Source: a virus. From it: a stretch of 64,000 nt of DNA. The first letter of the stretch is position 1. The number at the start of each line of letters is the position of its first letter. Of this stretch, positions 1,879 to 12,202 are shown piece by piece. The translations under genes and the position numbers were made by a program. The notes under the pieces were generated by a model. The model did no database searches and was not told the origin of the DNA. It saw only the letters and a program-made list of their open reading frames with translations. The stretch lies in the IMG/VR virus record IMGVR_UViG_3300035670_010029. One strand, given 5' to 3'.

Positions 1879-2091
1879 ATGAGAAATATTCATCCTGTTA
1901 CCTATATTATATTAGGTTTTTTGTGTTTATCTTTAGGTTTTAATCTTTTACAGAAATCAGAGAATCATAGACTACGCAAGATGCTGGATAAAAAATCTCA
2001 TCCTATTATTATTGACCTACCAGACCCTTATCAGTATCCAAATCAGAACAAAAGTAATGGGATTAGAAAAACAATTACTCACACAACATAG
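1879..2091 (+). CDS. small membrane-anchored protein
   Basis: N-terminal hydrophobic helix; TAG stop shares its G with the first base of the tmRNA. Confidence 0.6.
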   Translation: MRNIHPVTYIILGFLCLSLGFNLLQKSENHRLRKMLDKKSHPIIIDLPDPYQYPNQNKSNGIRKTITHTT

Positions 2092-2444
2092 GGGGCGTAA
2101 AGGTATCGATTGGATATAGAAGATTATGTTAGCAAGTAGTGGTTGGTGGACAGGCCACTTTAAAAGTCTACCAAATGCTTTAACTGGCACAAATCAGTTA
2201 GCCCTTGCTGCTTAATAAATAGCAGTAACAATCTTAGAAAGCGATGAAGGTAGCGTTCAAAAGATTGTCGTAAAATCCTTCGGCTGCTAGAATATCCAAC
2301 GGGTTCTAGCCTGAGATTTGTTGGTACGGAAAAGTAAATGTTGTTTGTTCTTTAACTTTTCTTAAAATTTTATGAACAAAATAAACTTGTAGAATATGTA
2401 ATTAGAAATATCGCAAGAAATGGGTTCGACTCCCATCGCCTCCA
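2091..2444 (+). ncRNA. ssrA: tmRNA, tag (A)GTNQLALAA
   Basis: GGGGGCG(2091-2097) pairs with CGCCTCC(2437-2443) with a G3:U wobble and discriminator A; T-arm ATGGG-TTCGACT-CCCAT; TAACT then tag frame 2186-2215 ending LAA-TAA; CCA not encoded. Confidence 0.93.
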
Positions 2445-2451
2445 ATATTAT

Positions 2452-7068: not shown

Positions 7069-7770
7069 ATGGAAACCGTTTTGGAAAAGAAAGAAAAGAA
7101 AACAACATATTGCAGGAGCAAGGCTGATGAATTTTTCGCAAACTTTCCTAAAGATAAAATCGTATCCTACAAGGATTATTGGGAGTCCGTTCGGCCACAG
7201 AATACCGCTGACATTTTCCGGCGTTATCTTTTTAGTTACTGCTCTGTGCATACTACTTGGAAGGGTAATTGCTCTGGTTATCAAGCCATCAAGAATTTTG
7301 ACGAATGGATTGATGATCAAGAAACCTTGAGAAACAAGTTGGCTAACTCAGGTGTAGGATTGCACAATAATCGCACAAAGTACATATGGGATTTTAGTCA
7401 ACAGTTTTGGTCTAATCCTAAAGATTTTTATCTTACTACCAAGAAGTATCATGTAAAAAAGCGTGATCAGATTGTAAATCGTATTACTGGTTTGGGCATG
7501 GCTAAAGTTAGTTTTGCATTGGAGATGATACATCCGAATGAGTGTCGCACACTATGTTTGGATGTTCATATGCTTCGTTTGTATGGTATGGAGCATCTTA
7601 CATATACTAAAAGCAAAGAAGGTATTAATAAATATAAGAGGGCTGAACAGCACTGGATGGTTAACTGCGGCAAATTGAAAACACCATCATATGTTGCTAG
7701 ATGTGCTTATTGGGATAATTTGCAGGGTAAAGAGGATTCTCGTTATTGGAGTTATGTTCTAGAGGATTAA
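7069..7770 (+). CDS. HhH-GPD superfamily DNA glycosylase-like protein
   Basis: ITGLGMAKVSF helix-hairpin-helix followed by LDVHMLR. Confidence 0.7.
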   Translation: METVLEKKEKKTTYCRSKADEFFANFPKDKIVSYKDYWESVRPQNTADIFRRYLFSYCSVHTTWKGNCSGYQAIKNFDEWIDDQETLRNKLANSGVGLHNNRTKYIWDFSQQFWSNPKDFYLTTKKYHVKKRDQIVNRITGLGMAKVSFALEMIHPNECRTLCLDVHMLRLYGMEHLTYTKSKEGINKYKRAEQHWMVNCGKLKTPSYVARCAYWDNLQGKEDSRYWSYVLED

Positions 7771-8770: not shown

Positions 8771-8956
8771 ATGACTAAAATTTACAAAAGTAAAACCGAT
8801 AAAGTTTTGTTTGGGGTATGCGGAGGATTGTCTGAATATTTCGGAATTGATTCACCCTTTTTAAGACTAGCATTTATTTTTGGAGCTATCTTTACTGGCA
8901 GCATACTTTTTTGGATTTATTTAATTATGGCTTTAGTTTTGCCGTCAAAGAAATAA
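8771..8956 (+). CDS. pspC: PspC domain membrane protein
   Basis: YKSKTDKVLFGVCGGLSEYFGID..RL..YLIMALVLP. Confidence 0.9.
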   Translation: MTKIYKSKTDKVLFGVCGGLSEYFGIDSPFLRLAFIFGAIFTGSILFWIYLIMALVLPSKK

Positions 8957-8999: not shown

Positions 9000-9028
9000 T
9001 TGACATGGACGATACCGTATTGTATAAT
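9000..9028 (+). promoter_or_regulatory. consensus sigma70 early promoter
   Basis: TTGACA-17 nt-TATAAT with extended TG. Confidence 0.85.
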
Positions 9029-9108
9029 GAAAGAGTCAGTAGAACGGTTTGATCAGTCGAGTGACTGAGCCTCTATTTGACGAACACTTGGAAGTTTGGA
9101 GGTTGATT

Positions 9109-9393
9109 ATGGCTGAAGTAATTGCTACAGAAAAGCAGAAGCGTGTGCGTTGTTCGGATGAGCAGTTTTTGGAGGCGGTTTTTAGCAGCAAGACCTATGC
9201 TGAGATTGCATCAAAGACTGGTCAAAAAATTGCTAGTACAATGGCACGATATTCTAGGACAAAGAAGGCTCTTGCAGAAAAGGGCATCGATCTGCCAGAG
9301 ATGGAACGAGCCAAGCCAGTAAAGACGATTGATAATGTTGAGGCTATGGCTGAGACTGTTCGACGCCTTAAGGCCGCTCATTCTAACTCGTAA
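9109..9393 (+). CDS. putative HTH DNA-binding early protein
   Basis: ATG 9109 after TTGGAGG; TYAEIASKTGQKIASTMARYSR resembles an HTH. Confidence 0.65.
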   Translation: MAEVIATEKQKRVRCSDEQFLEAVFSSKTYAEIASKTGQKIASTMARYSRTKKALAEKGIDLPEMERAKPVKTIDNVEAMAETVRRLKAAHSNS

Positions 9394-9406: not shown

Positions 9407-9483
9407 ATTCATCATCAATCATATTGGTCAAGGACACAACCTCCAAGATTAAATCCTGTGAACTAATATGGTTGGTGGTGAAT
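9407..9483 (+). ncRNA. candidate hairpin sRNA antisense to early-gene leaders
   Basis: 22-bp stem (9407-9428/9462-9483, four G-U pairs); apical region CAACCTCCAA..TCCTGTGAA is complementary to TTCACAGGA..TTGGAGGTTG. Confidence 0.6.
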
Positions 9484-9485
9484 AC

Positions 9486-9570
9486 GCTGAAGTGGCGAAA
9501 CTGGCGAAACGCACGGGACTTAAAATCCCGCACATTAGAAACACTGTGGGTTCGAATCCCACCTTCAGCA
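9486..9570 (+). tRNA. trnL: tRNA-Leu(TAA)
   Basis: GCTGAAG/CTTCAGC acceptor stem, CGGGA-CTTAAAA-TCCCG anticodon arm, long variable region, GTGGG-TTCGAAT-CCCAC T-arm; CCA not encoded. Confidence 0.95.
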
Positions 9571-9648: not shown

Positions 9649-10149
9649 ATGAAAAAAAGAAAAAGCAAATATACAAAAGAAATACTAGAACCTATTGTTG
9701 TTGATTGCAGATCTATGGGACAGGTGATAGATAGATTGGGATTAAAAAGGACAGGAGGAAATTACAAATCTATTCGGTTTCATATTAAAAGATTGAAAAT
9801 TTCAACAAAACACTTTTTGGGTCAAGGATGGAACAAAATAGGACAACCAGACTTCAATAACGGAAAAGAAAATATACAGACATACTTTGATAAGGAGATC
9901 GACAGAAAACCAGATCATGTTAAATCTAGGTTATTGACATATGGAATCAAAGAAAACAGGTGTGAATCATGTGGTATAAGCGGTAACAATGGCTGGATGG
10001 GCAAAAACATAACTATCGAATTGCACCATATTGATGGATGTAGATCGAATAATAATGTATCTAATTTGCAAATGCTTTGTCCGAATTGTCATTCACAAAC
10101 AGATAATTATAGGAACAGAAACGCAAAGAAACGTAAAAAAATCAGATAA
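9649..10149 (+). CDS. HNH homing endonuclease
   Basis: CESC..LHHIDG..NNNVSNLQMLCPNCHSQT; ATG 9649 after AAGGAG. Confidence 0.88.
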   Translation: MKKRKSKYTKEILEPIVVDCRSMGQVIDRLGLKRTGGNYKSIRFHIKRLKISTKHFLGQGWNKIGQPDFNNGKENIQTYFDKEIDRKPDHVKSRLLTYGIKENRCESCGISGNNGWMGKNITIELHHIDGCRSNNNVSNLQMLCPNCHSQTDNYRNRNAKKRKKIR

Positions 10150-12160: not shown

Positions 12161-12202
12161 TGGAGGCTCACAGGACAATTCACTTTTTGGAGATTTAGAA
12201 CA

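Follow-up and report, generated by a model that had tools for sequence, protein, structure and literature searches.

A hairpin that lies immediately upstream of a tRNA-Leu gene in the 64,000-nt stretch of DNA analysed here (hereafter the window) is a genuine and conserved RNA structure of the plus strand. Judged by comparison with related loci, it is one of the sequence types of a structured RNA that is conserved in a lineage of uncultured phages, where it occupies the slot between a helix-turn-helix (HTH) gene and a tRNA(UAA) gene. The best reading of its role, to which we give about an even chance, is that it forms the 3'-terminal hairpin of the HTH message, left by RNase P, and feeds back on translation of its own gene. 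If this reading is true, the hairpin would represent an RNA element that is widespread, though uncatalogued, in a large group of uncultured phages. The window belongs to a phage, as it encodes rIIA, rIIB, a ligase and a tmRNA, and a search of cultured-phage DNA around the hairpin locus gave no match. The features on which the argument rests are the following.

9000-9028, plus strand: sigma-70-type promoter matching the consensus at 12 of 12 positions, with a 17-nt spacer (promoter scan; also present in relatives)
9045-9072, plus strand: stem-loop close to where the leader begins; its inner stem joins 9053-9058 to 9063-9068 (alignment fold)
9096-9111, plus strand: translation start region of the 94-aa gene (SD, spacer and ATG), nearly invariant in relatives; proposed target of the anti-RBS box
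9109-9393, plus strand: gene of the 94-aa HTH protein (weak Pfam match to Sigma70_r4_2; alignment; AlphaFold model)
9407-9483, plus strand: hairpin, type C variant (sequence, RNAfold and positional homologues in relatives)
9437-9446, plus strand: anti-RBS box in the hairpin loop, complementary at 10 of 10 positions to 9096-9105; the homologous box is invariant in type A hairpins
9454-9460, plus strand: TCCTGTG, complement of the CACAGGA box, confined to type C hairpins and located on the 3' side of the upper stem
9486-9570, plus strand: tRNA-Leu with anticodon UAA (ARAGORN; Rfam RF00005, 61.4 bits)
9649-10149, plus strand: HNH homing endonuclease gene 3' of the tRNA (PHROG 10822, E = 3.7e-41)

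Structure and conservation of the hairpin

The lower stem pairs 9407-9428 with 9462-9483 (22 bp, including four G-U pairs) and ends 2 nt before tRNA-Leu(UAA). In the best fold it is topped by an imperfect upper stem of six pairs, formed between 9429-9434 and 9454-9460, and by a 19-nt loop (9435-9453) that contains CCTCC. RNAfold gave -31.1 kcal/mol for the plus strand, with z = -5.0 and none of 200 shuffles equalling it, versus -22.3 kcal/mol and z = -1.7 for the minus strand. An earlier note on this DNA had described the 22-bp stem with its four G-U pairs, its 2-nt distance from the tRNA and a preference for the plus strand, all of which are confirmed; the open position of the anti-SD portion in the loop and the imperfect pairing of the upper stem, also described there, are indeed seen in the best RNAfold structure. 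We rejected the idea that the hairpin is an intrinsic (Rho-independent) terminator: its AT/GU-rich stem is separated from the tRNA by just an A and a C, with no U-tract, and a terminator scan found no site here. Above the Rfam gathering thresholds the window contains the tRNA and the tmRNA and nothing else, so no family for the hairpin, and permissive Rfam scans of the hairpin and the leader, both in the window and in the related contig L080, returned chance-level matches only.

Viral contigs were scanned three times with the 94-aa protein as query; this yielded 233 loci, on contigs of up to 243 kb, which represent 102 distinct combinations of start region and downstream sequence (hereafter versions). 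A long hairpin between the HTH gene and the tRNA(UAA), ending 0-5 nt before the tRNA, is found in nearly all of these relatives, and it comes in several types. Type A is the commonest (71 distinct versions), and its apex carries a short GAGG/CCTC stem together with an invariant 8-nt box. Type B (21 distinct versions) has neither CCTC nor the anti-RBS box. Type C comprises five distinct sequences, namely the window and the four contigs L001, L002, L034 and L039. A fourth, small group of four versions has a short hairpin only, and three of these carry a tRNA-Leu(CAA).

The consensus stem of type A, derived from 28 distinct sequences, has 14 pairs, and compensatory changes are seen in 9 of the 14 lower-stem pairs. 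Across these sequences, 94.3% of cells are paired versus 30-46% when the partners are slid, and the covariation score is 0.529 versus 0.05-0.14, a value that none of 500 shuffles reached. One stem pair is G-U in 15 of the 28 sequences, which fits an RNA on the plus strand. When a covariance model built from type A was run with filters off, the window hairpin scored 16.8 bits, a weak and mostly structural recognition, and type C is thus the positional and structural counterpart of type A and not its clear sequence homologue. With default filters, the same model found no second copy of the hairpin in the window.

A given type of hairpin can stand before a wide variety of tRNA bodies, whether or not these contain a group I intron, which ties the hairpin to the slot and not to a particular tRNA. 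The sequences of the hairpins are themselves strongly conserved within a type. Among type C hairpins identity is 96-99%, compared with 76-82% for the flanking gene and 55-62% for its third codon positions, and type B hairpins are about 90% identical at divergence depths similar to those of type C. Taken over both types (L001-L232 compared with the window), the hairpins are about 90-99% identical where third codon positions are at 40-62%, and they are far more conserved than the synonymous sites of the flanking gene. Hairpin type does not track the divergence of the upstream gene, so that the hairpins act like conserved cassettes that can be swapped at a mosaic junction. Such shuffling points either to an exchange of cassettes or to selection acting on the primary sequence as a whole. 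Being exchangeable, the cassettes would also serve as naturally occurring variants with which to study how a phage regulator is tuned by long-range pairing inside a message.

The region of the tRNA and the HNH gene is a mosaic, recombination-prone junction. In one alternative, the inverted repeat would act at the level of DNA, as a recombination or homing-related site whose conservation stems from recent horizontal spread. Such a site would be in keeping with the shuffling of hairpin types against upstream-gene divergence, and with the mobile elements that flank the junction (group I introns in the tRNA of relatives, the HNH gene in the window). However, G-U pairs are frequent and strand-specific, their minus-strand counterparts would be A-C mismatches, folding of that strand is poor, and the compensatory changes maintain pairing of the RNA, so that we regard a DNA-level origin as very improbable.

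The anti-RBS box and the message of the HTH gene

The promoter at 9000 is the sole strong one upstream of the 94-aa gene, and no terminator-like site was found from there to the tRNA. Neither did the promoter scan find a promoter between 9028 and 9483, which leaves the hairpin without a promoter of its own. The leader (9035-9085 in the window; about 70 nt upstream of the gene in relatives) starts with the stem-loop at 9045-9072, in which 8 of 10 pairs show compensatory changes in an alignment fold of 27 relatives, and the message would thus have a stem-loop near both of its ends. An invariant TTGG box is also present in this leader, 10-20 nt before the SD, and neither the stem-loop nor the TTGG box is in Rfam. 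In the relatives, the start region of the 94-aa gene hardly varies, in contrast to the rest of the leader, which drifts.

The 94-aa protein is highly conserved, with a mean column identity of 89% in the alignment of relatives, and its AlphaFold model (pLDDT 84) consists of a three-helix HTH followed by a C-terminal helix. A fold search gave weak matches only, mainly to HTH DNA-binding domains, and the protein has no PHROG family and, in a protein search, no homologue in cultured phages. Just 5' of the promoter at 9000 lies a gene for a 61-aa PspC-domain membrane protein (8771-8956, plus strand; Pfam E = 1.6e-19). The consensus promoters at 611, 4333, 7001, 9000 and 12132 share CGAT, often as CCGATA, in the spacer right after the -35 box, a motif also seen in many promoters of the relatives L001-L080, in a scan that was itself filtered on the motif.

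The earlier note had pointed to a 10/10 match between the loop and the RBS of the upstream gene at 9096-9105. This match is real, and it is conserved across most relatives. In the window, 9096-9105 is the only plus-strand copy of the 10-nt target in 64 kb. In type A, the box is complementary to the SD and spacer of its own gene over 8 nt in all versions, and over up to 13 nt, including the start codon, in some. Within 437 kb of sequence from relatives, all 45 plus-strand copies of the 8-nt box sit in the hairpin, and 63 of the 67 plus-strand copies of its complement sit at the RBS of the 94-aa gene. A matched double change is seen in L031/L032, where a G to T change in the RBS spacer is accompanied by a C to A change in the loop that restores a 12-nt match. 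Of the 77 versions that have an anti-RBS hairpin (types A and C), 70 retain the RBS core, versus 9 of the 25 that have none (type B and the short group), an association with an odds ratio of 17.8 and p = 1.2e-7 by a statistic that ignores shared ancestry.

Other observations fit the pairing less well. Three RBS variants (L059, L124 and L129) have no compensating change in the loop, and the two bases 5' of the 8-nt core vary with no corresponding change in the RBS. Many type B loci retain the same RBS despite having no box, so conservation of the RBS is not due solely to pairing with the loop, and the lack of the box in type B hairpins counts, as far as the compared loci can tell, against an anti-RBS role. 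A 9-nt match of type B hairpins to their own leader was no better than chance once G-U pairs were allowed. We also discarded a 12-nt match of type B loci to a site about 800 nt upstream, which falls inside the PspC-domain coding sequence and is probably due to chance.

The favoured reading assembles these elements as follows. Transcription from the promoter at 9000 would make the hairpin the 3' untranslated end of the HTH gene message. Since the hairpin adjoins the tRNA, RNase P would set the 3' end of the hairpin RNA by cutting at the 5' end of the tRNA, and the hairpin would thereby become the terminal structure of the HTH message, its long stem shielding the message from 3' exonucleases. 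Both the cleavage and the protection are predicted on general grounds. The anti-RBS box may then pair, either in cis or between sister transcripts, with the region where translation of its own message starts, and would so limit translation of the HTH protein. If so, the element would be a new arrangement of two known principles, namely 3' ends made by tRNA processing and feedback of a 3'UTR on the RBS of a regulator gene.

The small net energies estimated for this pairing count against the reading. Nested co-folding of the start region with the hairpin showed no interaction, because pairing between the loop and its target is a pseudoknot that the model cannot represent, and we used duplex energy and opening cost in its place. 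By this crude estimate, the net energy after opening costs averaged about -3 kcal/mol for the start region of each locus itself, versus +6 for shuffled start regions. Four bases of the type A box lie within the apical stem, and a sense-like copy of the RBS in the 5' arm of the hairpin partly masks the anti-RBS box. In the window, the gene's own start region (9109) ranks second of 102 start regions by RNAduplex energy with the apex.

An alternative, which we regard as unlikely although it deserves serious consideration, is a purely structural element for processing or stability, that is, an RNase III site or a protective 3' hairpin between the message and the tRNA precursor, whose SD and anti-SD strings are merely the two strands of an apical stem. 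The 22-bp stem has the length, about 20 bp or more of near-continuous double-stranded RNA, that is expected of T7-type RNase III sites, and the relatives have the 14-bp consensus lower stem plus the apical stem. An uninterrupted stem of this kind (22 bp in the window, 14-20 bp in relatives) suits double-strand-specific cleavage; moreover, the stems covary freely while their position is fixed, type B works with no anti-RBS box, and the net pairing energies with the start region are weak. What a structural role leaves unexplained is the box itself, which is invariant over 8 nt across at least 67 distinct type A versions while the stems drift, which is complementary exclusively to the neighbouring RBS, and which takes part in the double change in L031. 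The conservation of type B and C hairpins far beyond that of synonymous sites also argues against it.

A further possibility is that the apex, with its purine-rich and ACA-rich 5' half and the box, serves as a binding RNA or a decoy for a protein, either the HTH protein or an RNA-binding protein of the host, and that it resembles the RBS by virtue of a shared binding site. The 5' half of the apex (a GG/GA step, then CACA) recurs in all three hairpin types, and both the sense-like RBS copy in the 5' arm and the extreme conservation of the neighbouring 94-aa protein would be compatible with such binding. That protein, however, resembles a DNA-binding HTH, and nothing in the analysis ties it to RNA; we hold binding of this kind to be improbable.

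CACAGGA leaders and the proposed regulation in trans

The earlier note had read the hairpin as antisense to a leader shared by the phage's early genes. CACAGGA is overrepresented in the window, with 13 copies versus 4.6 expected, and it is present in the leaders that had been listed. Five of the copies are within gene leaders; three of these leaders have the box at the extreme 5' end of the message, starting 8-9 nt past the -10 element of a consensus promoter. The complement TCCTGTG is confined to type C hairpins; in the other types, its position is taken by unrelated sequence that pairs with its own 5' strand.

From this match it had been proposed that a trans-acting hairpin RNA of about 80 nt switches off the early leaders of the form CACAGGA...TTGGAG (ligase, glycosylase, rIIA, rIIB and primase). 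Several findings agree with such an RNA. When the apex was compared with the 102 start regions by RNAduplex, those at 7069, 9109, 12203, 15906, 4382 and 14881 were all among the top seven. Seven start regions reached -17.5 kcal/mol or better, a count that was matched in none of 150 plain shuffles and in 1 of 150 shuffles that kept CCTCC, and complementarity within the window genome is thus modestly above chance. A minus-strand reading of the apex also fits the leader pattern, and the 96-99% identity of type C hairpins next to a gene at 76-82% indicates that the primary sequence may be under selection. The expected enrichment of these leaders among predicted targets was accordingly borne out in rank and against shuffles; it is weakened by the energies, as opening the upper stem that holds the heptamer costs about 9 kcal/mol, and the net energies with the leaders are then only -2 to -6 kcal/mol. 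In connection with the minus strand, we also considered a small ORF behind an SD-like reading of the apex and dropped it, its start codon not being conserved.

Comparison with relatives speaks against this proposal. Over 20 related loci whose hairpins are of type A, of type B or short have kept CACAGGA in the leader of rIIA, frequently in two copies with a 13-nt spacing, and TCCTGTG is found in none of the hairpins of these loci. Conversely, the homologue of the 7069 leader in the four type C relatives has the box in one case and lacks it in three. Because the box persists where the hairpin has no TCCTGTG, loop and leaders do not co-vary, and an absence of such co-variation among relatives was what the earlier note had itself named as evidence against its claim. 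The account of one sRNA for one early regulon thus fails its own comparative test. In addition, since the stretch from the gene to the hairpin contains no promoter, an 80-nt RNA could be set free only by further cleavage on its 5' side and would otherwise have no defined 5' end, and the match to the leaders was found post hoc. Taken together, we consider a role of the hairpin in silencing these early leaders to be improbable, and conceivable in type C only.

The comparison indicates that the CACAGGA box is an older and independent feature of the leaders, and that the complementary heptamer of the hairpin is a derived trait of a single cassette. Most likely, the match to CACAGGA in type C is a coincidence or a recent add-on and not the conserved role of the element. 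A restricted version of the proposal would be that, in type C only, the ancestral self-targeting hairpin gained a second antisense arm and, once released by RNase P, shuts down the CACAGGA-bearing early messages (ligase, glycosylase, rIIA, rIIB and primase) in trans. The near-invariance of type C hairpins leaves some room for such a gain, which we likewise think improbable; if it were true, type C would be an RNA-based early-gene switch that evolved from a 3'UTR element.

The box itself can be followed across the phage group at the 5' end of rIIA messages (12169-12175 in the window, about 5175 in L047 and about 6026 in L060), where it is often duplicated with a 13-nt period. It looks more like a protein-binding or operator-like site than like the target of an sRNA, and its ACA...GGA form presumably recalls CsrA-type sites.

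Parallels in known systems and the surrounding genome

The closest parallel in logic to the favoured reading is the icaR mRNA of Staphylococcus aureus, in which an anti-SD motif in the 3'UTR pairs with the SD region of the same message and is proposed both to block initiation and to create a substrate for RNase III (PMC3868564). As in icaR, the predicted 3'UTR of a regulator gene here has an anti-SD motif that is complementary to the SD of the same message (9437-9446 against 9096-9105, 10 of 10 positions). The phage motif differs in that it sits in the apex of a long hairpin adjoining a tRNA, and in that many relatives have a match that runs across the spacer as far as the start codon; the two share no sequence relationship, and pairing in the phage is a prediction from complementarity.

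The 3' end of MALAT1 is made by tRNA-type processing, which releases mascRNA. Similarly, the t-elements of plant mitochondria are sites where 3' ends of mRNAs are formed by tRNA processing (PMC1920247). In these systems, as would be the case here, a downstream tRNA or tRNA-like structure lets RNase P set the 3' end of the upstream RNA and a stable structure protects it. They are, however, organellar or nuclear, whereas the phage element precedes a true tRNA gene in a phage operon and cleavage would be by analogy.

Phage RNase III hairpins, and sib retroregulation in lambda, are cases where a long imperfect hairpin 3' of a gene decides the fate of the upstream message. The phage element shares with the T7 and lambda sites the long hairpin 3' of a gene. 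Those sites differ from it in having no conserved loop box antisense to the RBS of the gene and in not being fused to a tRNA, and RNase III cleavage of the present hairpin is only putative.

Lastly, the tRNA gene cluster of T4 encodes RNAC and RNAD, small stable RNAs that are late RNAs and whose function is still unknown (PMC9697503). Like the hairpin described here, they are structured non-tRNA RNAs of a phage that lie beside tRNA genes and are presumably freed by tRNA processing. RNAC and RNAD are located within a cluster of several tRNAs, in contrast to the present element, which follows a protein gene behind a sigma-70-type promoter. Overall, the element appears to resemble icaR, the t-elements and T4 RNAC/RNAD in its logic and not to be related to any of them in sequence, and it is a member of no curated family. 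If the favoured reading holds, it would offer a concrete case for the long-unexplained structured RNAs that adjoin phage tRNA genes.

Some further observations concern the surroundings of the hairpin. A full-length tmRNA gene (2091-2447, plus strand; Rfam 111.8 bits), with a tag peptide that ends in ALAA, lies within the early-gene region of the window. The tRNA(UAA) that follows the hairpin is very polymorphic in relatives (e.g., at about 3400-3610 in L001, L002, L004, L036 and L043): some bodies are 74-77 nt long with no long variable arm and others are 85-86 nt long and Leu-like, so that both class I and class II shapes occur. In many relatives, the anticodon loop of this tRNA is interrupted by a group I intron (RF00028), while the copy in the window is intronless and is followed by the HNH gene.
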